Shown here: positions 7,932-32,000 of the stretch, piece after piece
Layout: each line of letters begins with the position of its first letter
Numbering within the stretch: position 1 is the first letter of the stretch
NCBI RefSeq assembly: GCF_019203185.1
Contig: NZ_CP078093.1
Span: forward strand, 2,700,389-2,732,388
Source of the DNA: Crassaminicella indica
GTDB taxonomy: Bacteria > Bacillota > Clostridia > Peptostreptococcales > Thermotaleaceae
DNA length: 32,000 bases
Reading direction: 5' to 3'
Notes under the pieces: generated by a model
Told to the model about the DNA's origin: nothing
Database searches by the model: none
What the model saw: the letters and a program-made list of their open reading frames with translations, nothing else
Program-made: the position numbers and the translations under genes

Positions 7932-9190
7932 ATGAGTGATTTATTCAACAAAAATCAGTTAGATGAAAAAACTAAAGAGCTGATTTCAAAAATGGAAAAA
8001 GAAATTGCTAATCTAAAAAATGAGTTATTCTACTTTAAAAATCAAATTTTAAATAAAAATAGAAAAATATTCGGCTCTTCTAGTGAGCAAACAAGCTCAA
8101 TGCAAATATCCATCTTTGATGAAGCTGAAAAATTCAGCAATTTAAAAATAGAAGAACCAACAATTGAAGAAATCACTTACAAGAAAAATAAGCCCTCTAA
8201 AAATATAGGCAAAAAAGATAATTTAGCGAATTTAGAAAAAGTAGTGCTTGAACATAAATTAGATGAAAATGAACAAGTCTGCGAAAAATGCTCATCAAAT
8301 TTAGTAGTTATAGGAAAGAAATCAAAAGAGATTCTGAAAATAATTCCAGCAAAAATATGTGGCTTTATAAATCTCCAAGTAAAAAAGCCCCAATAGTCCT
8401 TTATGACTATCAAAAGACAAGGTCAGGTTCTTACCCTAAGAACTTTTTAAAAGGTTTTGCTGGGGTTATTCAAACAGATGGTTATACATGTTATAATCAG
8501 ATTGAAAATGTAAAAAGGATATATTGTCTAGTTCACATAAGAAGAAAATTTCATGAAATCATAGTAAATCTAAATGAAGAAGCCCTCAAAGAATCACGAG
8601 CATTAATAGGGTTTAATTCTTGTGCCAAGCTTTATGAAATCGAAAAAAAGCTTAGAGAAGAGCATAGTGAAAAAGAAGATTACTATGATATACGTTATAA
8701 AACAAGACTTGAAAAATCTAAGCCAATAATAGAAGAATTTATGGATTATGTAGATAAAGAAATAAAAGATGCAGTGCCTAGAAGCCCACTAGGAAAAGCG
8801 CTAGAATACACAAAGAAGCTTTTACCAAATTTCCTTATCTTTTTAGAAAATGGAACACTTGAAATAGATAATAATGGAGCTGAAAGATCCATAAAGCCAT
8901 TTGTAATGGGTCGTAAAAACTGTCTCTTTTCAGCATCATCAAAAGGAGCAGCTTCAAGTGCACCGCTTTATAGTATTATAGAAACAGCAAAGCTTAATCA
9001 CCTAGCAGTAGAAAAATATCTACTATACTTGATGGATGAATTATCAAAGCTTCAAAACAAAGATAAATCATCTTTATTGAAACTTCTTCCTTGGGCCAGT
9101 GAACTCCCAAAAGAACTAAAAATTGAACTAAAAAAAATCAATCCAGTAAGAGATAATTCTCCTACTGGATTAAATTTTATCAGGTATTAA
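7932..9190 (+). pseudogene. IS66-family transposase TnpC, internally deleted and frameshifted
   Basis: N-terminal half (ORF 7932..8396: KEIANLKNELFYFKNQILNKNRKIFGSSSEQ) and C-terminal half (ORF 8288..9190: PIVLYDYQKTRSGSYPKNFLKGFAGVIQTDGYTCYNQ...IDNNGAERSIKPFVMGRKNCLFSAS) lie in different frames with the middle missing. Confidence 0.85.
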
Positions 9191-14398: not shown

Positions 14399-15268
14399 TT
14401 GAAAATATTTAACATTTATATGCTTATTATTACGATTCTTTTACAACTAACAGTAATTTTAATGTTTAATACATCTATTGAAACTGCTACATCCCTTGAA
14501 AATCTCAAAAGGTGTATACCATTTTTCAACTTATTAATAATGATTTTAACTTTTTTTGTTATTTTTTCTATAAAAAAAATAAATGAATATAGAAACAAAG
14601 AAATTGAAAATAAATTATTAAAAACCTACTTAAGTAATGTAGAAAGTATACTTACTTTATTTCGAAAACAAAGACATAGCTATATCAACCATATACAAAC
14701 CATAAAATCTATGAGCTATTTAGAAGAGTATAATGATTTAATAGATTATTTAGAAGGGATTTCAGAAGAATATAGAAATGTTTCTGAATTAATCAGAGTA
14801 GGAAATCCAGCTCTTACAGCTTTATTGAATATAAAAAAGGAAATTGCAGAAAAAAAAGGCGTGAATGTATATATTAAGTGTAAATACAAAACAAATTTTG
14901 AATGGATTAGACCTTGGGATCTTTGTGATATGGTAGGGAATTTAATAGATAATGCAATTGAAGGGGCTACGATACTCACTAATTCCAAAAAATGGATAAA
15001 AGTAAAAATCGATAAATCTGAAAATAAATATATCTTACAAATAGAGAATACAGGAAAATTAGATAAAAATATTCCTACAGAAGAGTTATTTAAAGCAGGT
15101 ATTTCTACTAAAAATGCGACCAGCCGAGGGTACGGACTATATATCGTAAAACAAATCGTTGAAAAATATCATGGAACTGTAAGCATAGAAGAAACAGAAG
15201 ATGAAACCGTATTGGTAACATTAGTGCTAATAGAAGGAGTACAAGAAAATGTTGAAAAGATTATCTGA
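14399..15268 (+). CDS. AgrC-like sensor histidine kinase (GHKL ATPase, quorum-sensing type)
   Basis: RKQRHSYINHIQTIKSM (H-box), LCDMVGNLIDNAIEGA (N-box), GRGYGLYIVKQIVEKYHGTV (G-box). TTG start; only two N-terminal TM segments. Confidence 0.85.
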   Translation: MKIFNIYMLIITILLQLTVILMFNTSIETATSLENLKRCIPFFNLLIMILTFFVIFSIKKINEYRNKEIENKLLKTYLSNVESILTLFRKQRHSYINHIQTIKSMSYLEEYNDLIDYLEGISEEYRNVSELIRVGNPALTALLNIKKEIAEKKGVNVYIKCKYKTNFEWIRPWDLCDMVGNLIDNAIEGATILTNSKKWIKVKIDKSENKYILQIENTGKLDKNIPTEELFKAGISTKNATSRGYGLYIVKQIVEKYHGTVSIEETEDETVLVTLVLIEGVQENVEKII

Positions 15269-15887
15269 TACAATAGCTATTTACATAAGCAAAAATTTAA
15301 AAAGTGATAGGGATAAAATAGAGATTTATTCCTATGGACTACAAATATTTTTAGGAACAGCTTTCGAAATCATATTTATTATTATTACTGCTTATTTGCT
15401 TAATACCTTAAAATCTACAATTGTTGTATTAGTGTCTTTTATTCTTTTTAGAAGGTTATTAGGGGGGACTCACTGCACTATTTATAGAAACTGTTTTTTT
15501 GTAAGTGGGTTTAGTATGCTTTTATTAGGATTTATAGGTGATCAAGTAGTCTTATCATCTAAATACTTATTCGTTTTACTTGGATTAGCTTATATATTCT
15601 CTGTCATACAAACCATTAGATATATTCCAATGGGAACAGAGAAGAAAATGATAAAAAATTCAAATACTCGTTTAAAAATCAAAATACAAACAATACTACT
15701 TTTAAGTTTTTGGATGATCATCATTTATTTATTAAAAGATAAAGTTTCATCAAAATATATATTTTCTAGTTTATTAGGGGTAATTGGTGCATTTTTCTTT
15801 AGCACCCCTTTTAGTTATAAAATCATTAATCATTTAGAAATTTACTTGAATTTCTTAACAAAAGGAGGAAAAAAACAAAATGTTTAA
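15249..15887 (+). CDS. agrB: AgrB-family autoinducer-peptide processing membrane protease
   Basis: RRLLGGTHCTIYRNCFFVSG matches the AgrB catalytic His/Cys region (RxxxGGxHxxxxxxC); polytopic, 212 aa, followed immediately by AgrD-like peptide. Confidence 0.9.
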   Translation: MLKRLSDTIAIYISKNLKSDRDKIEIYSYGLQIFLGTAFEIIFIIITAYLLNTLKSTIVVLVSFILFRRLLGGTHCTIYRNCFFVSGFSMLLLGFIGDQVVLSSKYLFVLLGLAYIFSVIQTIRYIPMGTEKKMIKNSNTRLKIKIQTILLLSFWMIIIYLLKDKVSSKYIFSSLLGVIGAFFFSTPFSYKIINHLEIYLNFLTKGGKKQNV

Positions 15888-16020
15888 ATCAATGAGAAGA
15901 AATTTATTAGCTCTTGTTGCTGGGGTAGTCACTATGGTAGCTATGACAGGTGTAAGTACTGCATGTACATGGGGAGTTTACGAGCCTGAAATACCTGAAA
16001 GTATTAGAAAGGAACTTTAA
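15880..16020 (+). CDS. agrD: AgrD-like cyclic (thio)lactone autoinducer precursor, 46 aa
   Basis: Not in the supplied ORF track. Manual translation: MFKSMRRNLLALVAGVVTMVAMTGVSTACTWGVYEPEIPESIRKEL. AAAGGAGG RBS; overlaps the agrB stop; amphipathic leader, Cys core, acidic Pro-containing tail. Confidence 0.9.
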   Translation: MFKSMRRNLLALVAGVVTMVAMTGVSTACTWGVYEPEIPESIRKEL

Positions 16021-16031
16021 TTTAAAAGTAT

Positions 16032-16742
16032 ATGATGAATATATTAATATGTGATGATGATCTATATACAAGAAAAATGCTAGAAAAAATAGTATCACAA
16101 AATCCTTTTGTAGATACTGTTTTTCTTGCAAAGGATGGCGTAGAAGCAATTAATATGATTAAAAATGAATCTATTGATATTGCATTAATGGATATTGATA
16201 TGCCTAATCTAGATGGCATAGATGCAGCAAAAATGATGAGTAATTTATCTTCTAAAACTAGATTTATTTTTATTACTGCGTATATGGAGCATGCTATTGA
16301 ATCTTTTAGCGTACATCCTTATGATTATCTTTTAAAGCCAATAGATATTTCAAAATTTAAATATACACTTAATAATCTTATAATCATTGTTATGGAGGAT
16401 TTTAAAGAGAATGGTATTAGAAAGATTACTATAAAAGATAAAAGTAAAATATCTGTTGTTCCACTAAAAGAGATATTATATTTTGAAAAGGTAGATAGGG
16501 ATGTATTGGTACATACTCAAAAAGAAGAGTATACCTTAAGTAAAACATTAACTGAACTAGAAGATAAACTTAATAGTAGTTTTTGTAGAGTGCATCAATC
16601 GTTTATAGTAAATATAGAAAAAATAAAGACAATTACAAATATGGGAAACAGATCTTATCAAATTGAATTTACAGGATCTGAAAAAACTGCTTTAATGAGT
16701 AGATATAAGTTTGAGAAGTTAAAGAAGATTGTAATTTTTTAG
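16032..16742 (+). CDS. LytTR-family response regulator (AgrA-like)
   Basis: Receiver domain (ILICDDDLYTRKMLEKIV...IALMDIDMPNLDGIDAAKMM...FITAY) plus LytTR domain (EILYFEKVDRDVLVHTQKEEYTLSKTLTELEDKLNSSFCRVHQSFIVNIEKIKTI). Confidence 0.92.
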   Translation: MMNILICDDDLYTRKMLEKIVSQNPFVDTVFLAKDGVEAINMIKNESIDIALMDIDMPNLDGIDAAKMMSNLSSKTRFIFITAYMEHAIESFSVHPYDYLLKPIDISKFKYTLNNLIIIVMEDFKENGIRKITIKDKSKISVVPLKEILYFEKVDRDVLVHTQKEEYTLSKTLTELEDKLNSSFCRVHQSFIVNIEKIKTITNMGNRSYQIEFTGSEKTALMSRYKFEKLKKIVIF

Positions 16743-17514: not shown

Positions 17515-18355
17515 TTATAGCGCAATATGAACTTTCTCATTTGTATTCTGTAAATATTCATAATACTCATTTGGAGGCATAAACTTTGTAGATGAATGGA
17601 TTCTTTTCGTATTATATTTTTTGACGAACTCATTAACTTCTCTATAAGCTTGAGCATAATTTTCAAATTCATTGATTCCTAAACACTCATCTTCTAAGAT
17701 ACGATGATATGCTTCTATATATGCATTCATGTTTGGCGTATTATATGGAATTCTTTCATGTTCTATATTTAAATCTTTACAAGCAGTATTGTAAGCATTG
17801 CTAATATATTGAGGGCCATTATCTGATCGAATAATAGGCTTGCTTTTAACATCATATAATTGTCTTTTTAGTAATGCTGTTTTAATCACTCTAATTCCAT
17901 CTTCTGCTGTGCAACTAAGACCTATATGGTATGCAATAATGTTTCGATCAGCTACATCTATCATGCTCATAATGTAAAAAAATCTATCTTCGCCTGCTAT
18001 ATATCCATATTTTATATCTATTTCCCATAGTTGATTAGATCCTGTAACAATTCTATTTTTTGCGAGTTTTCTTGGATATTTTGGTTTGATTTTTCTTTGT
18101 TGTTTTAATATGTTCAGCTCTTTGCAAAGCCTGTATACTTTTTTCTTGTTTATGATTAAATTGCAATTTCTTCTCAACGCATATGTTAATTTTAAGTAAC
18201 CGTAGGAATATCCTTCGTCTTCAATAATTTGAATAATATATTCCTTGATTTGTTCATCGGATACCTTTTTCCCATTATTGGTTTTTGAATATCCTGGTAT
18301 AGCTCGTCCAGGAGCTTTACCTTTCGCTTGAGATTTTTTTGTCACGTGATAGTAG
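17515..18355 (-). pseudogene. IS3-family OrfB transposase, N-terminus truncated at the IS21 boundary
   Basis: YSYGYLKLTYALRR...NQLWEIDIKYGYI...PIIRSDNGPQYISNAY...ECLGINEFENYAQAYREVNEFVKKYNTKRIHSSTKFMPPNEYY; the sequence runs straight into the IS21 terminus at 18356. Confidence 0.8.
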
Positions 18356-18435
18356 TGTTAATGTCAATACAAATTCCTCAAAAAAGGGAAGATTTTTTCC
18401 CCACCTAAAAAATATAAAAAAATAAATAATTGATT

Positions 18436-19230
18436 TTAAGTTTCAATCTCAGATGATTTTTTATTAGTTACTTCATTATTTTGAAACATAGACTTAATTA
18501 CACCTTCACGTTGTTTCATTCTATAACTTTCACCTTTAATTACAATAAAATGGCAATGATGTATAAACCTATCTAATATAGCAGTAGCTAATACTGGATC
18601 ATAAAAGATTCTTGCCCATTCTTCAAAAACTTTATTTGATGTAATTATTATTGAGCCTTTTTCATACCTTCTTGATATAATTTCATAAAAGTCATCAACA
18701 CTATTTTGATTAAGTTTTTTAAGTCCTAATTCATCCAATATTAGCAAATCTGGGCTTGTATAATATCTTAGTTTTTGCCTAAATGAATTATCAGCTCTTG
18801 ACATATATAGCTCTTCGAGCATTTCATTTACAGTTGTAAATACTACTTTATAGCCTTGTGTAATAGCTTTAAGACCTAGAGCTATTGCTAAATGCGTTTT
18901 TCCTGTGCCCGGAGGGCCTATTAATGCTATATTTTCTTTTTTACGTACAAATTCACAAGTACTAAGATTATACACAAACCTTTTATTAATTGTAGGTTGA
19001 TAATTAAAATTATACTCTTCTAATGTTTTATGCTGTGGAAATTTAGCTTTTCTAATTCTATTTTTATTGCTATTATTTTGTCTATTTAAGATTTCATCAT
19101 TTATTAATAATTCAAAAAATTCAATATATGACAAATCGCTTTTTATAGCTTCTTCATTTCTCGAATCAAGTGTTTTTACTATACCTGAAAGCTTCAGATT
19201 TTTTAATCTAGACATTAGCATATCATTCAT
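18436..19230 (-). CDS. istB: IS21-family helper ATPase IstB
   Basis: Walker A IALIGPPGTGKTHLAIALG, Walker B PDLLILDELGLKKL, ...GSIIITSNKVFEEWARIFYDPVLATAILDRFIHHCHFIVIKGESYR. Confidence 0.95.
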   Translation of the reverse strand: MNDMLMSRLKNLKLSGIVKTLDSRNEEAIKSDLSYIEFFELLINDEILNRQNNSNKNRIRKAKFPQHKTLEEYNFNYQPTINKRFVYNLSTCEFVRKKENIALIGPPGTGKTHLAIALGLKAITQGYKVVFTTVNEMLEELYMSRADNSFRQKLRYYTSPDLLILDELGLKKLNQNSVDDFYEIISRRYEKGSIIITSNKVFEEWARIFYDPVLATAILDRFIHHCHFIVIKGESYRMKQREGVIKSMFQNNEVTNKKSSEIET

Positions 19231-20719
19231 ATTTAAACTCCCCCAAACTAGCTAGTTTATCATATTCTGCAAGATTCCTTGTAATATTAGTTGTATTTTC
19301 ATTGATATATGTTATATTTGTTTGAGTTGGAAAATCTATTATACCTTTCTCACAGATTCTCTTAATAATTTTATAAGAAAAAGCTCCATAAGTATTAGCT
19401 CTTTCACATGCTTTATCAATTATTTCATCATCATATTTTGTTCTTAAAGAAAGTATTCCAGAAATAGATTTATAATCATATTTTTTGTTGTTTGAATGCT
19501 TTATGAAGTTATCAAAGAACTTAAGAGCATTTTCTCCTATTTCAAGCATTTCTTCTCTTTGTCTTGACAATATTTGAGCACTTGTTATACTTTTACTATA
19601 AGGATAATGTTCATTATTTGTTATGTATTCGCCCTTTTTATCTTGACATAAGGTATGGAGGGCTATTTCTTTTTCTTTGTAGAATATTTTTAATATATTA
19701 TTTATCTCAATAGCTTCTATTTCTTGTCCTATATAAGCATATGGTACAGAATAATAATTAGCATCGTAGCTGATATGACAATTTGTATTTACAATACATT
19801 TAGTAGATTTAGATAAGATAAAATCTTTATTAGGGATAGGAATTAATTTTTCTTTTTCTATAGAGTTAAAAACTTCGGCAGGAACTTTTTTAGTTGTACC
19901 ATGTTTTCTTATGTTTGCAATATTTTCAAGCCATTCAGATAAAAATTCTTTAGCTTCTTCGTAATCTTTAAATTCTCGACCTTTAAAACAATTATCCTTA
20001 ACATATTTAACATTAGCTTCTACTTTGCCTTTATCCGTAGGAGTGTATACTCTACATGGCTGCGCCCAAAATCCATAATGCGAAGCAAATGATGCATAAT
20101 TTTTTTGCACTGTAGGTTCATAAAAATCAGCTTCTAAAATACCTGCTTTTAAATTATCTATTTTTACTGTTTCAGGTACTCCACAAAAATATTTAAAAGT
20201 ATTTTTGTGACAAGTAATAAAAGTTTTAACAGATTGGTCAAATACTATTTGAACATACATATATCTTGAATAACTCAATGTCATAACAAATATCCAAGCT
20301 TTTTTATGTCTGCCATTAACTTTTATTGTTCCTATATACCCAAAATCAACTTGAGCTTCTTCTCCAGGAAGAGAAGTTAATACCATGTAAGCTTTAGGTG
20401 GATTTTTCTTTATTCCAGCTATATATTTTTTTACAGTATCATAGCTTCCTTCATATCCATGTTCTCTTTGTAAATCTTGAAAAATGCGCTTTGCTGAAAG
20501 TTCTTTAGAAGTTTGAATATTGATATATTCTTTATATGGATCAAGTATTGAAGGATACGCTTTTCTTTCTACAGCACCATGTTTTTCAAGTTTTTCTAGT
20601 ACAGTTCTTACTGTTTTTCTGTCTATTTTTAACATTTTAGCTATTTGAGTTTTGTTATATCCTTTTTCAAATAAAGTATCTATTGTAGTATGCATTTCAA
20701 CCCCCAACATGTATTTCAT
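19223..20719 (-). CDS. istA: IS21-family transposase IstA
   Basis: HTH (GYNKTQIAKMLKIDRKTVRTVLEKL), DDE region EEAQVDFGYIG...KIDNLKAGI...YGFWAQPCRVYTPTDKGKVEANVKYVK, Mu-type C-terminal region. Confidence 0.95.
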   Translation of the reverse strand: MKYMLGVEMHTTIDTLFEKGYNKTQIAKMLKIDRKTVRTVLEKLEKHGAVERKAYPSILDPYKEYINIQTSKELSAKRIFQDLQREHGYEGSYDTVKKYIAGIKKNPPKAYMVLTSLPGEEAQVDFGYIGTIKVNGRHKKAWIFVMTLSYSRYMYVQIVFDQSVKTFITCHKNTFKYFCGVPETVKIDNLKAGILEADFYEPTVQKNYASFASHYGFWAQPCRVYTPTDKGKVEANVKYVKDNCFKGREFKDYEEAKEFLSEWLENIANIRKHGTTKKVPAEVFNSIEKEKLIPIPNKDFILSKSTKCIVNTNCHISYDANYYSVPYAYIGQEIEAIEINNILKIFYKEKEIALHTLCQDKKGEYITNNEHYPYSKSITSAQILSRQREEMLEIGENALKFFDNFIKHSNNKKYDYKSISGILSLRTKYDDEIIDKACERANTYGAFSYKIIKRICEKGIIDFPTQTNITYINENTTNITRNLAEYDKLASLGEFKYE

Positions 20720-21887: not shown

Positions 21888-23531
21888 TTACCACCTATAC
21901 TCATTATATCCACCTTCAGGACCATTGTCTTTGTCATACCATTTATCTAATAATTCAAACCAGTTACCTACTTTATTTATTTCTTTATTTATTCCTTCTT
22001 TACACCATTTTAATTTTCCATAACACATGTCTCCAAGCGCTAAATATTTAGTTAAATCAAGAGGGCTATACCAAAATTGAGATTCAAAATGTCTATGGTA
22101 AACGCGATTAGAATAAACTTCACTATCACCTGATGGGAAGAAAATAGATAATCCATTTTTACCATCCTTAAATCCATCATAATCTTCTCCCCCATAAGAA
22201 TAGAGAATCATATCATCTACTCTATCCATAAGAGTTTGAGATTTACTATAGATATTCGATAAATTTGTTATAAGAATATCTTCATTTTGATTATATATCA
22301 CATCATAAACAGCAGTCTGTTGTTTTTCTATATATACTTCATTCATAACAGTATTAGGTTGTTTTTCATTATATACTTCATCCGCAACAGTTTTTGTGAA
22401 TTTATCACTATATTTTATTTCTTTTGCAAAATCATATAAATCAAATAATGGATAAAAAAGTTGACTAATTATATTATTCGAATAAAAATAATGCATAATT
22501 TTAGGATTACTTATGTTCCCTCTTAATTCTTCGATTTTTTGTTTCTCATCCTCAATAGCAACAACAAGACCATCTACTGCATTTTTAACATCTTTTACTT
22601 TGGATAAGTCATAACAAGACAAAGTTTGATTTGTAACAATATTTTTACAAGAATCTCTCTGTTCTTCAACGATGATTGCACCAATTTGAGCATTTGTTAT
22701 AGTTTTAGGAGAATAATATTTTTCATATCCCCCCAAAGTTGAATCCTTTTCATTATTGTGTCCATCTTTAGTTTGTAATCTGTTTAGAATCTTATCATAT
22801 TTCCAACCTTGTTCCCATTCAGCTGTAGCACAGCCCACCATAATATCAGCTTCAAATCCACCATTTCCTTTATAAAATTGATAAGCAAACTCTACATTTC
22901 CCATGTAGCAAGCATCTAAACCTAAAACATCTACAGATTGTTCTTTAGTTAGTACATCAGAAATCTCTCCCGTATATAAAGCATCATATCCATTTGTTTC
23001 ATCTGTACATACCATTTTTCTTTTTTCGTTTTTAGGATCTTTTCTTGGTCCTCCTCCATGATTAGAAAGAATCAATACATATTTATCAGCTGGGTATTTT
23101 TCTTTACAATAATCAATAAAATTTTTTAGTGTGTAAGCATCCCCCATATTAGCTTCAAATGTTGTAAAAATTGTACTTATTTTAGGAAATTGTTTTCCAC
23201 CATCTAACCTTTTAACTTCATTTGGATTGATCTTATATAATCTTGTATCATCAAAATCTTCTCCAAATACCTCTTGATCAGAACTATAGCTTTCATGTCG
23301 GTCTACTAACGCAATCAGATTAATTTCTTTAGTAACACCTTTTTTCATTTCTACAACGTCACTTAACAAATCTGGTTCAAGATCATTATCTGCATCGCAA
23401 TAGTACATTATAGTGATAGGTTTTTTTTCTACTAATAATTCTTTTGCATAAGCAAAGTTAAGATTTCCTAAAACTAGACATATCAATAGAACAACGGTCA
23501 ATATAGCATTATTTTTTTTATTTTTAATCAT
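21888..23531 (-). CDS. Secreted clostripain-like cysteine peptidase (MEROPS C11)
   Basis: Signal peptide MIKNKKNNAILTVVLLICLVLGNLNFAYA; TIMYYCDADNDLEPDLLSDV; DKYVLILSNHGGG (His), VDVLGLDACYMGNVEFAYQF (Cys). Start assigned to the inner ATG at 23531. Confidence 0.92.
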   Translation of the reverse strand: MIKNKKNNAILTVVLLICLVLGNLNFAYAKELLVEKKPITIMYYCDADNDLEPDLLSDVVEMKKGVTKEINLIALVDRHESYSSDQEVFGEDFDDTRLYKINPNEVKRLDGGKQFPKISTIFTTFEANMGDAYTLKNFIDYCKEKYPADKYVLILSNHGGGPRKDPKNEKRKMVCTDETNGYDALYTGEISDVLTKEQSVDVLGLDACYMGNVEFAYQFYKGNGGFEADIMVGCATAEWEQGWKYDKILNRLQTKDGHNNEKDSTLGGYEKYYSPKTITNAQIGAIIVEEQRDSCKNIVTNQTLSCYDLSKVKDVKNAVDGLVVAIEDEKQKIEELRGNISNPKIMHYFYSNNIISQLFYPLFDLYDFAKEIKYSDKFTKTVADEVYNEKQPNTVMNEVYIEKQQTAVYDVIYNQNEDILITNLSNIYSKSQTLMDRVDDMILYSYGGEDYDGFKDGKNGLSIFFPSGDSEVYSNRVYHRHFESQFWYSPLDLTKYLALGDMCYGKLKWCKEGINKEINKVGNWFELLDKWYDKDNGPEGGYNEYRW

Positions 23532-23639
23532 TATTAAACATCCTTTCGTTTTGTTTAAAGTACACTGCAATTTATTAAATAATTCTTAATAAGCTTGATG
23601 TTAGTATAAAAGCATGAACACGAAAAGTAGGATATAATA

Positions 23640-24600
23640 ACTATATCTGAAAGGAAGTGTTCACATGAAACAAAATGGAAAAAGATATGATGATGATTTT
23701 AAAAGAATGCTTGTTGATTTATACAATACCACCAATCATACCTACAAAAGTCTCGAAAGCGAATATAGCGTAACAGCTACAACAATTCAAAGATGGGTAA
23801 AGGATTTAACTCCTATCGATCCATCGGATGAAAATTCTATAAGCCCTCGTGAAAGAAAGCAAGCGCCGCTATGGAGCGCATAAAATCCATCAACAGATGA
23901 AGAAAGAGAAACTGCTTGAAACAATACCTAGCCTAAAAAGAGTTCAAAGATTCATGAAAAATATGGGTTTATTTGCTGTACTCATCAAACGATTTAAATA
24001 CAAGAATACCAAGACTACTAATAAAAATCTTCCAAATCTATTTAATCAAGATTTTTCGACTACTAAATTGAATCAGAAGTGGGTTGCCGATATAACTTAT
24101 ATCAATACAATTCATGATGGATGGTGCTATTTAGCTTCAATACTTGATTTACATAGCCAAAAAATTGTTGGCTATGAATTTACTAAGAAAATGGATTAAT
24201 CCATCGTTTTAAACGCATTAGATAAAACTATGCTTCGACAAGGAAAACCTAAAAATGTGATTATACATACAGATCGTGTTAGTCAATACCTAAGTAAAGA
24301 TTATATAAAAGCAATCGAAGGCTATGGAGCAAAGAGATCTTATAGTGCTAAGGGAAATCCTTATGATAATGCTGTAATCAAATCATTTCATGCAATTTTG
24401 AAAAAAGAAGAAATTTACCAAAATATTTATCGTTCATATGAAAAAGCTAATTTGGCTATATTTGAGTTTATTGAATCCTGGTACAACAATAAAAGAATTC
24501 ATAGCAGCATTGGATATCTTACACCAAATGAATTTGAAAAACTTGCTGCTTAAAATATCACACTTTTTGTGTCCAAATATTGACATAAGTCCAGCTTCAC
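23640..24600 (+). mobile_element. IS3-family (IS150-like) element, plus orientation, inactivated by an in-frame stop in orfB
   Basis: orfA 23665..23883 (KRYDDDFKRMLVDLYNTTNHTYKSLESEYSVTATTIQRWVKD). orfB 23849..24553 (KRRYGAHKIHQQMKK...KWVADITYI...) with a TAA at 24197-24199; both halves are in the same frame. Confidence 0.85.
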
Positions 24601-24646: not shown

Positions 24647-26455
24647 TTAAGACTGTTCATAGTCGCCTATTTGGATATTATATAATGTACTATAAATTCC
24701 TTCTAAATTCATGAGCTCTTCATGGCTTCCACTTTCCTCAATTCTTCCTTTTTCTAAAACAATTATATTAGCAGCTTGTTTAATAAAATTATTAAATCTG
24801 TGAGCTACAATAATACCTATTTTCTCTTTCAACAAATCATTATACATACTAGATAAATTGTACTCTGATATAGCATCTAATGCTGCATTAGGTTCATCTA
24901 AGATGTATATATCAGCTTCCTTTGCAAACGCTCTTGCTAAAGCAACTCTTTGCCACTGTCCAATAGATATTTGTTTACCATTATCAAACCAATACCCCAA
25001 CTGAACATCTATGTTTTTAGGTTCATTCTTTGTCAAATCTTGCAAGTTAAATCTATTACTAATTTCATTAATACGATTATCGTCTCGAATAATATCTAAA
25101 TTTCCATAGCCTATATTTTCTCTAAAAGTAGTTTCGAATTTAGCAAAATCTTGAAATAAAGTTCCTATTCTTCTTTGTAATACTGATTTATCTATTTCTT
25201 TCATATCAATTCCATTTATGTATACACTGCCTTCATAATCATCATAGAATCCCATCATAATTTTTATTAGAGTAGTTTTTCCACTTCCGTTTTTTCCTAC
25301 TATTGCAATAAATTCCCCTTTCCTAATGGTTAAATTAATATCTTTTAATACATAATCCTCATCTTCTCTATATTTATAATATAGATGTTCTATTTTTATT
25401 TCGTTTATTTGATCTATCTCTTTTAGAGTTGTTACTTTTCTTTTGTTTTTTAAATTCAAAAAAACATACAATTGATCTATAAAAATACTTTGTTTTTGTA
25501 TACTTGCAAACGACTCTAGAATTTTTTCAATATAAGATGTTAAATCTATAATCGTTCTAGTATAAGTTATAACATTTCCAATTAAAATTTCACCAATATA
25601 TCCGATATAAAGAACATAAGCAAACATAAGTGAGCTTAAAATATGTTCAAATATCCCAACAATTGATAAATATACTATAGATTGCTTTGCAATCTTTAAA
25701 TCTTGTAAATTAAAACTATTAATATAGTTTTTATATTTAGTTATAAAATAATCAAACAATTGATATGCTTTTAATTCTTTATAGTTCTCTCCATTCTTTA
25801 TAAGAAAATCATAGTACCATGCTTGTCTCTCCTGATTAGTTCTCGCTTTTATTATTTTAAATTCTTTTATGTTTATATTTTTAACTACAAAATATTTAAC
25901 AATTGGAACTATCAAAACAATTATAACAATCCAAGCTTTAAAATAAAGTAAAATAATTACATATGAAAACATAGTAATCAAAGTACTTGAAATATTAACA
26001 AACATGTTAAAATATGATAATAGCTTACCTTCACTTTCATATTGTGCTCGTCTAATTATGTCATAAGTTTCACTATTTTCATAATCCTTCAGCTCAAGAT
26101 TTGTTACTTTTCGTAATACTTCCTCTTTAATTATTAAATTAAATTTTAAACTAAACTTAGTATTAAAATATCCTACTAAACTTTGAAATATAGTTTGAAA
26201 TAAATCCACCCCTGCATAAAGAGCTATATAAACAAATACTTGTCTTATATTTTTTATTCCAAGTTGTATTAGATTTATAATTTTCTGCATTAATAGTAAA
26301 GAAACGGTAGGAAGTATACCCGTTACTATCGTAGAAATTAAAGTTACAGCAAAATATCTCTTGTCTACTTTATATATATACTTTATTGTTTTAATTAAGT
26401 TTTCCCAAATATTAGTAGTTGTTTCTTCTGGATTCATAATTATTCTCCTATTCAA
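24647..26455 (-). CDS. LanT-like ABC transporter (fused TM + ATPase, no C39 peptidase domain)
   Basis: Walker A GKNGSGKTTLIKIMMG, signature SIGQWQRVALARAF, Walker B ADIYILDEPNAALD; overall like SpaT/NisT-type exporters; close to lanC. Confidence 0.85.
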   Translation of the reverse strand: MNRRIIMNPEETTTNIWENLIKTIKYIYKVDKRYFAVTLISTIVTGILPTVSLLLMQKIINLIQLGIKNIRQVFVYIALYAGVDLFQTIFQSLVGYFNTKFSLKFNLIIKEEVLRKVTNLELKDYENSETYDIIRRAQYESEGKLLSYFNMFVNISSTLITMFSYVIILLYFKAWIVIIVLIVPIVKYFVVKNINIKEFKIIKARTNQERQAWYYDFLIKNGENYKELKAYQLFDYFITKYKNYINSFNLQDLKIAKQSIVYLSIVGIFEHILSSLMFAYVLYIGYIGEILIGNVITYTRTIIDLTSYIEKILESFASIQKQSIFIDQLYVFLNLKNKRKVTTLKEIDQINEIKIEHLYYKYREDEDYVLKDINLTIRKGEFIAIVGKNGSGKTTLIKIMMGFYDDYEGSVYINGIDMKEIDKSVLQRRIGTLFQDFAKFETTFRENIGYGNLDIIRDDNRINEISNRFNLQDLTKNEPKNIDVQLGYWFDNGKQISIGQWQRVALARAFAKEADIYILDEPNAALDAISEYNLSSMYNDLLKEKIGIIVAHRFNNFIKQAANIIVLEKGRIEESGSHEELMNLEGIYSTLYNIQIGDYEQS

Positions 26456-26589: not shown

Positions 26590-27822
26590 TCAATATTTTG
26601 AACACAAAAAGTTTAACAGATTAAAAAGCTGACTTTAAATTATTCTCAAATTGGTCGGGAGTGATATAACCAATACTACTATGTATTCTATTTCTGTTGT
26701 ATCAAGACTCAATGAATTCAAAGATAGATTTTTTAGCTTCATTAAAATCTCTATACTTTTTATGATTAACTTCTTCTTTTTTTAATATTGAATGAGATGA
26801 TTCTATTGGAGCATTATCATAGGGATTACCCTTACTGCTAAAAGAAATAGATAATCCTAGACTTTTAACCTTTTTCATATATTCATAGCTAGTGTATTGG
26901 CTTCCTCGGTCAAAGTGAATGATAACTTGACCATTAGGTCTTTGGTTAAAATAAGCATTTTCTAAAGCTTTTATTGTTAATTCAGTAGTGATAGATTTAG
27001 AGAATGAGTAACCTATGATTTTTCTTGTATATAAATCCATTATTGATGCTAGGTAACACCAACCATCTTTAATAGTATAAATATAGGTAATATCAGCTAC
27101 CCACTTTTGATTTATACAAGTAGCTGTAAAGTCTCTTTTGATGATGTTTTTACCTATTATTTCATTACACTTAGAAGAATAATACTTAAATTTTTTATGA
27201 ACAATTGATCTAATACCTAGCTTTTTCATTAACCTTTATGTTCTTTTTAGACTTACTGACCATCCACGAGATTTTAGTATTTGTCTAATTTTAGGAGCAC
27301 CGTAACGCTTTTTACTATCTAGATAAACAGACATAATGGCTTTTTAGTTTTTCATTTTCAAGAGATCTGTTAGATTTTTCTCTGGACCTACGGTCATAGT
27401 AAGTGCTACGAGGTAGTTCTAAAATTTTACATAACAATTTAATATTATGTTTTTTCTTATTATCTTCGATAAAAGAAATTAATGATTGAATATCTATTTT
27501 TTCGTGAATATGGTTAAAGCCTTTTTTAAGATTTCAATTTCCTCCTTGATCTTTGCATTTTCCTTTTTCATCTCAGCTATATCTTTAGGAGTAATAGGTT
27601 CTTGATCTTCTACTTTAATTACTTTGTTTTCTTTAATCCATTTATAGATTGTTGTTCTAGTTACACCATATTCATGTTCTAACTCTGATACTGAACTACC
27701 AGAGTTATATAATTCAATAATTGTTTGTTTAAAATCTTCGTTGTATCTTTTACCATTAGTATTCATACGGACACACCCTTTCATCTAATTATAGTTTATC
27801 TTGTTAAACTAAGTGTGTCCAT
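26590..27822 (-). mobile_element. IS3-family (IS150-like) element, minus orientation, orfB frameshifted
   Basis: orfA 27494..27784 (GKRYNEDFKQTIIELYNSGSSVSELEHEYGVTRTTIYKWIKENK); orfB fragment 26702..27229 (CINQKWVADITYIYTIKDG...). Ends resemble each other as inverted repeats: TGGACACACTTAGTTTAACAAG (revcomp near 27820) and TTGAACACAAAAAGTTTAACAG (near 26600). Confidence 0.85.
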
Positions 27823-27973: not shown

Positions 27974-29272
27974 TTAATCGACCATTAATACTCTTCCATA
28001 CTCCATGCTTTCATGAATAACACCTAAAAGTGATAGTACAACTCCCATTGCTCCTTGTAATAAAGACAAATCATTTTCAAAATGATTTTTAATGATTTGA
28101 TTCATATCATAGCTAGTATCACTATTCTTATTAAATATATCAAGAATTGCATTTATATCTTTCTCAATAGTTTTAACAAAACGTTCATCTTTGGTATCCC
28201 TATAAGCCATCATTCTTATGCATAAAACACTAGAATACCCATGACATAAAATTGTTTCAAATAAATTATATCGATTTACAGGTTGATTGATTATATTAAT
28301 CAGATCTTTTTTATAAGTTTCCTCCTTTTGCGTATAACCCATATATTGAGCTGCTTTTTGCAACCCTCTTGCTATTCCTGTGTTACCATAACACCAACTT
28401 GCCATGGGAAGTCTTAAATTATCTGAATACTGTCCTTTGATAAAATTTTCAAAAGATAATTGCGTAGGCCATGCAGCAATATCATTACGGTATACTTTAA
28501 ATTGATCATAAATATCAAACAATGTGCTAATTGCATTTTCAATTCCTTCTACTCTTATTTCTTTATTATGTGCTTTAGTTAATGCCACTAATGGTCCTAA
28601 CATTCCATGAGATAAACCAAAATTAATATTTCCATTTGGAAACTCTAATTGTTCATCTTCTCTAGATAAATTTTCCTTAATAATATGAAAATTTATAATC
28701 GAATTATCCATATGCTCATGATAGTTAGTTAATTCAATAAGATATTTAATTAATTTTTCTAATTGCAAATTTTCCTCTAAATTCCATTCAAAATCTAGTA
28801 AAAAGTATACAAAACCAGATACTCCAGCAATAACATCATAATCGTTCATAAAAACATCATTTTTTCTTCTTAATCTTTCCACAAACTCAACAGCTTGCTC
28901 TAGAAAAAACTTATTTAATGTATTAGAGAATTTTGATAGATTTCCAGTTTTTTTATTAAATAAACTAACACAGAAACATTTATATCCAAATCCACCAATC
29001 ATACCAAGATTTTTTTCTGAAATACCATATGTTTCTATTTCCTGTTTCAATCCTTTACATAAGTCATATCCCATTTGTTCCCATTTATCTTTATTATCTA
29101 TTAGTGGATAGATCTCCGAAATTATCATTAAAAAATCACTATTATATATAGGATTTATAATTTCTAAATCATATTGTTCTTCAATGTATTGAAAAAAGCA
29201 ATTTAAAAACTCATTAACCCTATCCCTTGTATTTTCTGAAATATGTATATAATTATTTGTATCACCTATCAT
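27974..29272 (-). CDS. lanC: Lanthionine synthetase C-like cyclase (LanC)
   Basis: NFGLSHGMLGPLVAL, ASWCYGNTGIARGL, ETILCHGYSS (Zn-ligand Cys/Cys-His motifs of LanC), DLSLLQGAMGVVLSLLG. Confidence 0.93.
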   Translation of the reverse strand: MIGDTNNYIHISENTRDRVNEFLNCFFQYIEEQYDLEIINPIYNSDFLMIISEIYPLIDNKDKWEQMGYDLCKGLKQEIETYGISEKNLGMIGGFGYKCFCVSLFNKKTGNLSKFSNTLNKFFLEQAVEFVERLRRKNDVFMNDYDVIAGVSGFVYFLLDFEWNLEENLQLEKLIKYLIELTNYHEHMDNSIINFHIIKENLSREDEQLEFPNGNINFGLSHGMLGPLVALTKAHNKEIRVEGIENAISTLFDIYDQFKVYRNDIAAWPTQLSFENFIKGQYSDNLRLPMASWCYGNTGIARGLQKAAQYMGYTQKEETYKKDLINIINQPVNRYNLFETILCHGYSSVLCIRMMAYRDTKDERFVKTIEKDINAILDIFNKNSDTSYDMNQIIKNHFENDLSLLQGAMGVVLSLLGVIHESMEYGRVLMVD

Positions 29273-30023
29273 TATAAAATTCCCCCTCTTTTTTTAATCT
29301 TTGCATTTTTTTATTTTTAATAGCAAATTCTTGAAATGACTTACATTCTTTAATCCATTTCTGATCCCAATAATTCCATTCATACTCTAGTTGCCCAACA
29401 GCTATTTGTTTATCAATGAGAATACTATAATAATTTTGATAAAATCCAAAGTAATCTTCCAAAAACTTATTTGAGTATCCATAATTATTTTGTATAGAAT
29501 TTAAAAATTCAGCTGCACTTGTTTCTATAAACTCTTTAATTTTATCTCTCTTTTTAATAAAAACATAATTGCCTAAATTCTTAATACCTATCGACTCTTG
29601 TATTTCACACATATGTTCTTTTACAAACTCTTGTCCACTACTCATTGTAGTAGTTAATGTAAATCCTAATTTGCCAGCATAATTCATTAAATGGGCTGAA
29701 CTAAATATTCTATCCTCAAAAGTTTTCATAATTCCCGATATATTGTTAAAATAAACGGGACTAGCAAAAAACACAATGTCTGATTCTAATAATTTTTTTC
29801 TTATCTTAAAAAAGTCATCATGCTCATCTACTAAGCAAAATCCATTATCTAAACAATTTGAACATCCAAGGCAATAATTTATTTTATAATCTCTTAAACA
29901 AATTATCTCCGAGTCATAACTCGTATCTAAAATCTGAATTTTTTCCAAAATTCTTTTCGTTAACAAATTTGTAATAGAATTATTGTTATTACTACCAACA
30001 ACAGCTACTATTTTACATTTCAC
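29262..30023 (-). CDS. NAD(P)H-dependent FMN reductase/flavodoxin-fold oxidoreductase, lanthipeptide-associated
   Basis: KIVAVVGSNNNNSITNLLTKRIL, CLGCSNCLDNGFCLVDEHDDFFKIRKKLLESDIVFFASPVYFNNISGIMKTFEDR. GTG start with AAGGAAGTG RBS; the 3' end overlaps the lanC start by 11 bp. Confidence 0.85.
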   Translation of the reverse strand: MKCKIVAVVGSNNNNSITNLLTKRILEKIQILDTSYDSEIICLRDYKINYCLGCSNCLDNGFCLVDEHDDFFKIRKKLLESDIVFFASPVYFNNISGIMKTFEDRIFSSAHLMNYAGKLGFTLTTTMSSGQEFVKEHMCEIQESIGIKNLGNYVFIKKRDKIKEFIETSAAEFLNSIQNNYGYSNKFLEDYFGFYQNYYSILIDKQIAVGQLEYEWNYWDQKWIKECKSFQEFAIKNKKMQRLKKEGEFYNDR

Positions 30024-30151
30024 TATATCATCACTTCCTTATTACTACATGATTTTTTTAATAATTAATTTAGTAATAGTACATCCAAATGTTGTATGTG
30101 ATGTAATACTATATCTATTTATGGTTATTTTTTTTACTCCTTTTATTTGCA

Positions 30152-30176
30152 CAGTAGGTGATCAAAGGGGTCGTAA
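30152..30176 (+). repeat. Left arm of perfect 25-bp inverted repeat flanking the precursor cassette
   Basis: cagtaggtgatcaaaggggtcgtaa; exact reverse complement of 30737-30761. Confidence 0.97.
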
Positions 30177-30221
30177 TATTTTATTACAGTTTAATTATAT
30201 AGTTCTACCTAATTATTTTAT

Positions 30222-30425
30222 TTAGCAGCGTGTACCTTCTCCTGGTTTAGCAGCATTACGACAAGCTGTCATATCACTTGGTGAACAATGAGTTGAAATT
30301 TCAGAACAATGTCTTTCTGATATATAAGTATAACAAAAAACATTAGCCGTCCACGCACGGCTAGTATTTTTATTATCAGTTTTAACTTTCTTTAAATTCA
30401 AATCAAAATCTTTAAATTTACCCAC
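30222..30425 (-). CDS. Class I lanthipeptide precursor LanA-1 (67 aa)
   Basis: MGKFKDFDLNLKKVKTDNKNTSR|AWTANVFCYTYISERHCSEISTHCSPSDMTACRNAAKPGEGTRC. FDLNL box equivalent to nisin FNLDL, Arg before a predicted 44-aa core with 5 Cys and 10 Ser/Thr; GTG start with AAGGAGAG RBS. Confidence 0.92.
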   Translation of the reverse strand: MGKFKDFDLNLKKVKTDNKNTSRAWTANVFCYTYISERHCSEISTHCSPSDMTACRNAAKPGEGTRC

Positions 30426-30477
30426 AGTAATCTCTCCTTCATATGATTTAATTACATAATTTTATCTAACTATTTTT

Positions 30478-30684
30478 TTAGCAGCGTGTACCTTCTCCTG
30501 GCTTAGCAGCATTACGACAAGCTGTCATATCACTTGGTGAACAATGAGTTGAAGGATCAGAACAATACTTTCTTGATAAAACAGTATAGCAAGTAAGTGG
30601 ATTCATCGTCCAGTTACGAGCAGTATTTTTATTATCAGTTTTAACTTTCTTTAAATTCAAATCAAAATCTTTGAATTTACCCAT
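30478..30684 (-). CDS. Class I lanthipeptide precursor LanA-2 (68 aa)
   Basis: MGKFKDFDLNLKKVKTDNKNTAR|NWTMNPLTCYTVLSRKYCSDPSTHCSPSDMTACRNAAKPGEGTRC; 5 Cys and 11 Ser/Thr in the predicted 45-aa core; AAGGGGG RBS and ATG start. Confidence 0.93.
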   Translation of the reverse strand: MGKFKDFDLNLKKVKTDNKNTARNWTMNPLTCYTVLSRKYCSDPSTHCSPSDMTACRNAAKPGEGTRC

Positions 30685-30736
30685 AGCAATTTCCCCCTTA
30701 TGATTTCTAACTACTATTATTGTTTTTTATTAACTC

Positions 30737-30761
30737 TTACGACCCCTTTGATCACCTACTG
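30737..30761 (-). repeat. Right arm of perfect 25-bp inverted repeat flanking the precursor cassette
   Basis: ttacgacccctttgatcacctactg; exact reverse complement of 30152-30176. Confidence 0.97.
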
Positions 30762-30780: not shown

Positions 30781-32000
30781 TTATTTTCTTTTTGTATACT
30801 TCCACTTTTCTATTAAATCATGTAAAGAATGTCTTATGATTGATAAACATTTTCCTTCGTATGCTGTATCACCAATCATACGATTGCAATACATATGATT
30901 CATAGAAAATATAATCTCTTTTTTGATATTTGTTGTTTTTTTCTTTTCAATCTGCTTTTCTAACTGTTTTTTGAATTCAAATAACATTAGCTGTCTTTTT
31001 TTATATACTTCTATTATTTTTAATAATCTTTTATCAATTTTTTCAACTTCTCCTTTTAATATGTATTCTGCGATTCTAAGATAATTTATCCTTTCTTTCT
31101 TAAATTCATCTCTATATTTATTTCTCAAATTCTCTTCATCTAAGATTTCAAGCAATTCAAATTCATCATGAGTTAGCTCTTTTAATACCGATATCATACC
31201 AACCATATATAACAGTTCTTTATCCTTTTCATTATCTAAATCAAATGAATTTAATATATTAATTACAAAAATGCTATCCGCATAAAAAAATTGTTCCGCA
31301 TATTCTATTAATTCTAATCCACCATATCTATTCACTTCTCTTTCGTATACATCAAATATAGTTCTATTAATTAAACGATTTTTTTGCAATTCAAAAATCC
31401 AAGACTTAATTCTATGTAATTTATTTAATGCTATATTTTCATTCTCAAATTTAAATCTTAGTCGTAGATGTTTTCCATTCTCATAATATCTAAGAAAAAA
31501 GAATTTCTCTAAATCTAGATCATCTAACAAACATGGTAATTCTTTTGTTAATAATTCATTTTCTTTATCTCCTAATCCATATAATTTCATATAAATCCAA
31601 CCATGGTCTCCTAAAGAAAAACGTTGACTCTTGTTTTGAATCATCCTATTGTTTTCTACAAAATCCTCTTTTATAGTCGATAAAAGTATTTTTTTATTTT
31701 CTTCATGTTGTATGAATGAAAAAACAAATTCTGCCATATAATTATTCTGGTCTAAATCCTCTACAATGGGATTGCTAAACATTTCAGTTTCGTGTAAATT
31801 CAATTCACCATTCTTCTTAACAGATGAATATATAATATCTAAGAACTCTTCATGTTTTAAATCAACTAATATTCGATGGTCTCCTTCACACAAACATACA
31901 TAGTCATCAATTTTATATTGGTGAATGACTTTATCAAAGCTTTTTTTGAACTTTTCTAAACTTTTCATATCAAAGTTCTCACTACTAAAATTCCAACTTT
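30781..32000 (-). CDS. lanB: Class I lantibiotic dehydratase LanB, C-terminal part (end of glutamylation domain + glutamate-elimination domain); N-terminus beyond the window
   Basis: GDHRILVDLKHEEFLDIIYSS...EFVFSF and GDHGWIYMKLYG...FFFLRYYENGKHLRLRFK...VYEREVNRYGG (Lant_dehydr_C / thiopeptide-type domain). The frame stays open (...SWNFSSENFD-M) past the tool's start to 32000. Confidence 0.9.
   Translation of the reverse strand, partial: SWNFSSENFDMKSLEKFKKSFDKVIHQYKIDDYVCLCEGDHRILVDLKHEEFLDIIYSSVKKNGELNLHETEMFSNPIVEDLDQNNYMAEFVFSFIQHEENKKILLSTIKEDFVENNRMIQNKSQRFSLGDHGWIYMKLYGLGDKENELLTKELPCLLDDLDLEKFFFLRYYENGKHLRLRFKFENENIALNKLHRIKSWIFELQKNRLINRTIFDVYEREVNRYGGLELIEYAEQFFYADSIFVINILNSFDLDNEKDKELLYMVGMISVLKELTHDEFELLEILDEENLRNKYRDEFKKERINYLRIAEYILKGEVEKIDKRLLKIIEVYKKRQLMLFEFKKQLEKQIEKKKTTNIKKEIIFSMNHMYCNRMIGDTAYEGKCLSIIRHSLHDLIEKWKYTKRK

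Follow-up and report, generated by a model that had tools for sequence, protein, structure and literature searches.

Our study examined a 32 kb stretch of the Crassaminicella indica genome (hereafter the window, to which all coordinates refer) and found that the two precursor genes of its class I lanthipeptide operon, lanA1 and lanA2, are bracketed by a perfect inverted repeat whose arms very probably function as the two sides of an RNA helix in the lanA sense transcript. This was indicated by the presence of an equivalent bracket in related operons, by compensatory changes between the arms and by wobble pairs that are tolerated in the sense RNA and not on the opposite strand. From the sequence comparison we consider it reasonably probable that the arms are the halves of a 25–30 bp helix that would be cut by RNase III, releasing a stable precursor mRNA with paired ends.

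The precursor bracket and its recurrence in related operons

Reading of the sequence places CAGTAGGTGATCAAAGGGGTCGTAA at 30152–30176 and its exact reverse complement, TTACGACCCCTTTGATCACCTACTG, at 30737–30761, with complementarity at 25/25 positions. A repeat search found this to be the strongest inverted repeat of the region, which can be lengthened to arms of 33 nt that are 91 % complementary and lie 544 nt apart. When up to three mismatches were allowed, the 25-mer occurred at only these 2 sites in the 32 kb, and 100 dinucleotide-preserving shuffles yielded 0 matches. The stem score of the upstream against the downstream lanA flank was 51, compared to a maximum of 25 for shuffled flanks.

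On the minus strand the region carries a lanB C-terminal open reading frame (ORF), lanA1, lanA2, an FMN_red flavoprotein gene and lanC, in that order, which constitutes a class I lanthipeptide operon. The arms are about 560 nt apart and both lie in untranslated spacers of the lanA sense strand: the 5′ arm is set off by 19 nt from the lanB stop codon upstream and by 52 nt from the lanA1 ATG downstream, and the 3′ arm follows the lanA2 stop codon by 45 nt and precedes the FMN_red start by 128 nt. These spacings therefore show that the arms bracket the two precursor genes and nothing else. The initial annotation of this DNA had described both the perfect repeat and its enclosure of the lanA pair alone within the lanB-lanA-lanA-oxidoreductase-lanC transcription direction, and the sequence, gene calls and measured spacings agree with that description. 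LanA1 and LanA2 are annotated as hypothetical proteins of Crassaminicella indica. The arms and the genes around them are as follows.

30737..30761, minus strand: 5′ arm of the long-range helix, sense sequence 5′-CAGUAGGUGAUCAAAGGGGUCGUAA; pair probability 0.98
30152..30176, minus strand: 3′ arm of the long-range helix, transcript sequence 5′-UUACGACCCCUUUGAUCACCUACUG; covaries with the 5′ arm
30137..30142, minus strand: AAGGAG, resembling a ribosome-binding site, about 10 nt past the 3′ arm and within the motif GNGCAAATAAAAGGAG
30781..31968, minus strand: lanB dehydratase C-terminal (elimination domain) ORF; Lant_dehydr_C, E=2.9e-42
30478..30684, minus strand: lanA1, class I lanthipeptide precursor of 68 aa with an FDLNL-type leader; own ribosome-binding site inside the loop
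30222..30425, minus strand: lanA2, paralogous precursor of 67 aa, 81 % identical to lanA1; inside the loop; weak TIGR03731 match
29262..30023, minus strand: FMN_red-family flavoprotein, downstream operon gene; possible lanthipeptide tailoring reductase
27974..29272, minus strand: lanC cyclase, downstream operon gene; LANC_like, E=4e-43

LanA has very few close relatives, and related loci were therefore reached by profile searches and contig look-ups; an exact-protein look-up of the window LanA1 matched no contig. The comparison drew on 12 further distinct loci with LanA homologues. In each locus the best ungapped stem was sought between the 150–200 nt upstream and the 200–250 nt downstream of lanA. 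A strong stem was present at the equivalent place in 10 further distinct loci, with scores of 31–52 against 23.5–30 for the best of 20–30 shuffles, so that the comparison of related clusters proposed in the initial annotation recovered the bracket around different precursors. The arm sequences of the bracketed loci fall into four unrelated classes.

Class 1 (the arm type of the window): L001, L004 and L013, from sequencing-run (Logan) assemblies
Class 1: L002, a Tissierella genome assembled from a metagenome
Class 1: L009, Clostridium pascui
Class 1: L014, Clostridium sp. MSJ-11
Class 2: L003 and L007 (Clostridium liquoris), arms TTCAGTGGAAGGGCC / GGCCCTTCCACTGAA
Class 3: L015, a 27-bp helix, arms CTTCCATTCAACTCATAGGCCGCAAGG / CCTTGCGGCTTATGAGTTGAATAGAAG
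Class 4: L017, a perfect 19-bp helix, arms TCTAATTGGGAAGAAAAGT / ACTTTTCTTCCCAATTAGA; 5′ arm within the last lanB codons

The helix measures 25–30 bp in the window, L001, L002, L004, L009, L013, L014 and L015, and only 15–19 bp in L003/L007 and L017. The 5′ arm was also present in L005 and L006, where the contig ends before the 3′ side and neither locus carries pairing information. The content of the bracket varies among loci, with one or two lanA genes and cores of 51–85 aa, and lanA is co-oriented with lanB and the downstream genes in every locus fetched. L014 resembles the window in holding two lanA genes (215-nt period) within one arm pair, and the bracketed unit is therefore the precursor block and not each gene. 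No significant flanking helix was found at L011/L012 (2950–3320), where the gene order is lanB-lanC-lanA; the best stem there was 14 bp, with a score within the shuffled range.

Within the window, the two precursor genes form a tandem duplication (30217–30714) with a period of 256–259 nt and 82–88 % nucleotide identity, and the arms lie outside the repeat unit. The lanB gene was called as two ORFs in L007 (821–3928; 739+269 aa), L015 (1–2903; 562+470 aa) and L017 (721–2983; 485+275 aa). The first residues of the lanB ORF of the window (395 aa, 30781–31968) match the end of the N-terminal dehydratase domain, and the window ends at 32000; to judge by these matches, this lanB may be split or frameshifted, as in several relatives.

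Covariation and strand asymmetry of the arms

The seven class 1 loci, window included, align without gaps, and a helix of 26 pairs was scored across them. RNAduplex over-extended the helices on long flanks, and the strand comparison was made by ungapped column-wise counting. Standard pairs were formed in 96.2 % of the cells (7 loci, 26 pairs). Changes on both sides were seen in 7 of the 26 pairs, one column alone showing G-C, C-G, A-U and G·U, and a further five pairs varied on one side only. For four of the five covariation measures the observed value was reached by 0/500 shuffles, and for the remaining measure, further pair types, by 23/500. Sliding the register by 1–3 columns reduced pairing to 27–46 %.

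The two strands were not equivalent in this alignment. When read as antisense, 89.6 % of the cells were paired, no pair showed one-sided variation, and seven pairs departed only by unpaired cells. All 12 one-sided cells of the class 1 helix are G·U pairs in the lanA sense RNA and C·A mismatches on the antisense strand. Grouping these changes by shared origin left approximately eight independent events, compared to 0 of the opposite kind (p ~0.004 if the strands were equivalent), and reading of the sequences of the other arm classes added two G·U events and two A·C events. The occurrence of G·U on the sense strand only, with a mismatch on the antisense strand, suggests that the duplex is one of RNA, and argues against a DNA-level site for a recombinase or transposase, which would predict no such asymmetry.

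Folding and sequence conservation gave further results on the arms. When the 656-nt sense RNA was folded, the 25-bp helix was part of the minimum-energy structure and also of the centroid (z = -7.2), and the mean pair probability of the helix was 0.93–1.00 in 11/11 loci folded. Measured as identity to the window, the arms (73–96 %) are the best conserved segment of the region, compared to 38–77 % for the adjacent untranslated spacers, 74–79 % for leader-coding and 51–72 % for core-coding sequence. Searches with the Rfam covariance models found no match at the arms and two chance-level matches elsewhere (E = 0.37 and 0.99).

Proposed fate of the helix and alternative explanations

In the class 1 relatives the motif GAGCAAATAAAAGGAG stands directly after the 3′ arm, with the start codon of the next gene a few bases on; this gene is CPBP/Rce1-like or lanC, and its ribosome-binding site begins about 11 nt after the arm. 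The 3′ arm of the window is followed by UGCAAAUAAAAGGAG, which has no U-run. With no T-run after the 3′ arm and the next gene of the relatives so close to it, no room is left between helix and next gene for a terminator or promoter, and transcription must pass through the lanA block to reach the downstream genes. A simple scan of the sense strand for sigma-70-like promoters found none between lanB and lanA1, and the matches within the segment were located only inside the lanA coding sequences, at background frequency, which lends weak support to the absence of a lanA-specific promoter. The lanA ribosome-binding sites are outside the helix, 44–52 nt away in most loci and about 22 nt in L004. 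With the exception of class 4, the arms also lie outside translated sequence, and ribosomes would therefore not melt the helix.

Under the mechanism that we propose, the 3′ arm, once transcribed, would pair with the 5′ arm and so close a loop that contains the one or more precursor cistrons and no other gene, leaves their ribosome-binding sites free and sets the precursor message apart from the upstream lanB and the downstream tailoring and cyclase genes. RNase III is specific for double strands and acts on substrates of about 20 bp or more, such as the stems on either side of the 16S and 23S sequences in rRNA precursors. Drawing on this established knowledge of the enzyme, we suggest that it would cut the 25–30 bp duplex and separate the lanB, lanA and downstream segments. 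The 5′ and 3′ ends of the released lanA mRNA would still be paired by the remaining inner helix, and this pairing may shield the message from RNase J1, a 5′ exonuclease, as well as from 3′ exonucleases. The lanA mRNA would then persist longer than the transcripts of the enzyme genes and yield the substrate peptide in excess, which would be a case of selective processing and stabilization of RNA inside a single operon. A G+C-richer inner half of the helix was considered as an aid to end-pairing after cleavage and was dropped, as the two halves in the window are about equal (46 % and 50 %). More tentatively, the comparison across loci raises the possibility that clostridial class I lanthipeptide operons carry a covarying cis-RNA bracket that excises the precursor mRNA in the manner of rRNA and leaves a long-lived message with paired ends; such a bracket would work whatever it encloses, be it one lanA gene or two and whichever core, and might represent a portable RNA-level expression cassette for peptide precursors.

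Several observations weigh against this interpretation. The helices of two classes (L003/L007 and L017), at just 15–19 bp, are at or below the usual length for RNase III, and the 5′ arm of L017 falls within the last lanB codons, where translation would therefore compete with pairing. The cis duplexes known to be cut by RNase III in Firmicutes, those of icaR (PMC3868564) and spoVG (bioRxiv 10.64898/2026.09.18.752551), repress rather than stabilize, and the direction of the effect could thus be the opposite of that proposed. With respect to the pairing itself, the sense strand has two A·C mismatches, of which L015 carries one and the L003-class stem, at its outer edge, the other, and the G·U events are few (approximately 8–10 independent). 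A C-to-T mutational bias of the coding strand could also inflate the G·U count, and the arms of the window, being perfect, give by themselves no strand information.

A less likely explanation, which shares all of the comparative evidence and differs only in the effector, is that the RNA helix acts uncut, either as a closed loop between the 5′ and 3′ untranslated regions (UTRs) that protects the lanA transcript, or as a geometric device that keeps the enzyme genes translationally coupled. In the coupling variant the helix would bring together the lanB stop codon, which lies 19 nt before it, and the ribosome-binding site that serves the next gene and lies about 11 nt beyond it, with the precursor genes looped out. 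The spacing of the helix to both of these landmarks is conserved in the class 1 loci; however, in L017 the 3′ arm has a terminator-like hairpin after it and does not directly adjoin the next gene, and in the window the downstream start codon is missing. The covariation and strand asymmetry apply equally to an uncut helix. Helices of 15–19 bp, as found in two classes, are short for RNase III, but perfect or near-perfect duplexes of 25–30 bp are expected from established knowledge to be cleaved in bacteria that possess the enzyme. The precedent of hbs, which involves RNase Y and RNase J1 and not RNase III (PMC5737220), is also in keeping with an uncut helix.

The sequence beyond the 3′ arm differs among loci. 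Most relatives with sequence past this arm have a CPBP/Rce1-like membrane protease gene there, which is likely an immunity or maturation gene, and L014 has lanC directly. The window instead has a 128-nt gap (30024–30151) with an orphan AAGGAG and no start codon after it; a remnant of a CPBP gene was considered for this gap and rejected, as the BLASTP result was not significant (E = 0.33). In L017 (2956–2974 and 3272–3360), and likewise in L018–L020, the 3′ arm is followed by the terminator-like hairpin (GTAACCAAGCCTAT...ATAGGCTGGTTAC with a T-run) and then by an ORF on the opposite strand, and lanB-lanA may therefore be a separate transcription unit in this class.

The initial annotation had offered three readings of the repeat: an invertible ON/OFF cassette, a mobile or exchangeable precursor cassette, and a duplex in the mRNA that would close off about 560 nt as a loop. 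The last of these is strongly supported by conservation across four arm classes, by the compensatory changes and by the sense-only G·U pairs, whereas the two DNA-level readings are not supported.

It is very unlikely that the arms mark the limits of a precursor cassette that moves or is exchanged at the DNA level, whether as part of an element resembling a miniature transposon or as recombination anchors for swapping lanA between clusters. Such a cassette is weakly compatible with the higher conservation of the arms relative to the core-coding sequence that they enclose (73–96 % versus 51–72 %) and with their variable cargo, and the window is rich in insertion sequences. An association between lanthipeptide precursors and a repeat-processing transposase was proposed in picocyanobacteria and later weakened by its authors (bioRxiv 10.1101/2020.03.09.984088). 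However, no target-site duplication is present, the arms being flanked by TTTGCA on one side and AATTAA on the other, and the arm sequence was confined to the lanA flanks in 113 kb of related loci. From species to species the arms keep their position with respect to lanB and the next gene, and the one-sided changes are wobble pairs in the sense strand alone, a pattern not expected of an element that acts at the DNA level. Further searches gave 0 matches of a degenerate arm pattern to viral contigs and no match in plasmids to the cassette (blastn) or to LanA (tblastn); the exact arm 20-mer had no match among species-representative genomes, a collection in which the window's own copies were also missed.

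We give still less credence to the arms as recombination sites of an invertible segment that turns precursor expression ON and OFF, like the phase-variable switches of clostridia. Perfect 25-bp inverted repeats 560 bp apart do fit the geometry of known switches; in the flgB switch of C. difficile, inverted repeats of about 20–30 bp likewise flank a segment of a few hundred bp in a clostridial genome (RecV; PMC5386303). The nearby tyrosine or serine recombinase that the initial annotation had suggested seeking was not found among the window ORFs of at least 90 aa, which included only DDE transposases of the IS3, IS21 and IS66 type; this lack is not decisive, since RecV acts on switches far from its gene (PMC5386303). 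The C. difficile switches, however, are regulatory segments that are found in both orientations and for which no strand-specific wobble is predicted, whereas the lanA bracket carries complete genes with no predicted promoter inside. Only one orientation of lanA was seen in all loci fetched, the two arms of the relatives are mismatched to each other as DNA at 2–5 positions, which can be tolerated only as wobble pairs in RNA, and four unrelated arm sequences occupy the one position. An intrinsic terminator or attenuator after lanA was rejected, in line with the initial annotation, as the arms are 560 nt apart and no U-tract follows the 3′ arm.

A local terminator-like hairpin (TAGCCGTGCGTGGACGGCTA) with a T-run was observed in the lanA2 coding sequence (30344–30363, minus strand), and the paralogous stretch of lanA1 is without it. 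This hairpin could truncate the transcript inside the loop, or could be due to chance.

The wider neighbourhood of the operon contains insertion sequences at 7932–9190, 17515–20719, 23849–24553 and 26702–27784, comprising IS66, IS3, IS21 (transposase and IstB) and IS3 fragments. A broken IS3 lies between lanC and the ABC transporter (24647–26455), and the lanthipeptide cluster may be partly decayed. Close to the lanthipeptide ABC transporter lies a gene for a C11 peptidase of the clostripain family (21888–23570), a candidate for the leader peptidase. An agr-like module (GHKL histidine kinase, AgrB and LytTR response regulator) is present on the plus strand at 14399–16742, opposite to the operon and more than 11 kb from lanC, with insertion sequences between. 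In L004 and L009 AgrB is immediately upstream of lanB, together with a LytTR regulator in L004, and in L007 a kinase is found there.

Relation to known systems and implications

A close parallel in design comes from the RNase III stems of rRNA operons, in which complementary segments hundreds to thousands of nucleotides apart bracket an RNA that is excised from a multi-gene transcript. As with the lanA bracket, the helix of these stems has two or more turns, and the released rRNA keeps its ends paired. The lanA bracket differs in that it encloses translated mRNA for one or two small precursors in a loop of 300–560 nt, and in that its cleavage is here a proposal.

Pairing between the UTRs on either side of one short cistron has also been described in two Firmicute mRNAs. 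In B. subtilis hbs a 14-bp interaction of the 5′ UTR with the 3′ UTR modulates cleavage by RNase Y (PMC5737220), and in S. aureus icaR a 5′/3′ UTR interaction covers the ribosome-binding site and represses translation (PMC3868564). Both resemble the lanA bracket in that such pairing alters ribonuclease access; however, the lanA helix measures 25–30 bp, leaves the ribosome-binding site free and is located inside an operon. The S. aureus yabJ-spoVG operon transcript contains a cis duplex that is a substrate of RNase III and provides sub-operonic control (bioRxiv 10.64898/2026.09.18.752551). This system is similar in having an intramolecular duplex in a polycistronic transcript with gene-specific control, although that duplex represses a downstream gene and does not flank a cistron on both sides. 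Ruminiclostridium cellulolyticum has a cip-cel operon in which intergenic stem-loops direct processing and set stoichiometry (PMC10311766). Here too RNA structures in the spacers of a clostridial operon direct cleavage, protect segment ends and result in non-equimolar expression, but they do so by a local hairpin at each end, whereas the lanA bracket forms a single helix from both ends together.

Nisin-type clusters carry leaky hairpin terminators after lanA. In the microcin C operon, a post-transcriptional device and a terminator after mccA set the ratio of precursor to enzyme (PMC4231749). These devices share their presumed purpose with the lanA bracket, namely more precursor than enzyme message from one promoter. 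However, they need the precursor gene to be first and a local hairpin with a U-tract, whereas lanA is here internal to the operon and no U-tract is present.

Searches of the full-text literature outside subscription-only journals turned up neither an account of inverted repeats around lanA nor one of lantibiotic transcripts being processed by RNase III, and a helix formed from both flanks of an operon-internal precursor gene appears to be previously undescribed. On the sequence evidence, the lanA bracket would not be a categorically new principle but a variant of a post-transcriptional device, with good comparative support.

In the biosynthesis of ribosomal peptide natural products the precursor is needed in large excess over the enzymes. 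The textbook arrangement for this has the precursor gene at the head of the operon and a leaky terminator behind it. In the operons described here the precursor genes are located mid-operon, and a conserved long-range helix appears to solve the problem of precursor excess at the RNA level. If this is true, it would provide an mRNA example of a mechanism best known from the maturation of rRNA. It would also offer a sequence-independent signature for mining genomes for precursor genes, in the form of complementary spacers flanking a small ORF, and a compact, portable part for setting expression ratios in synthetic operons of Firmicutes.

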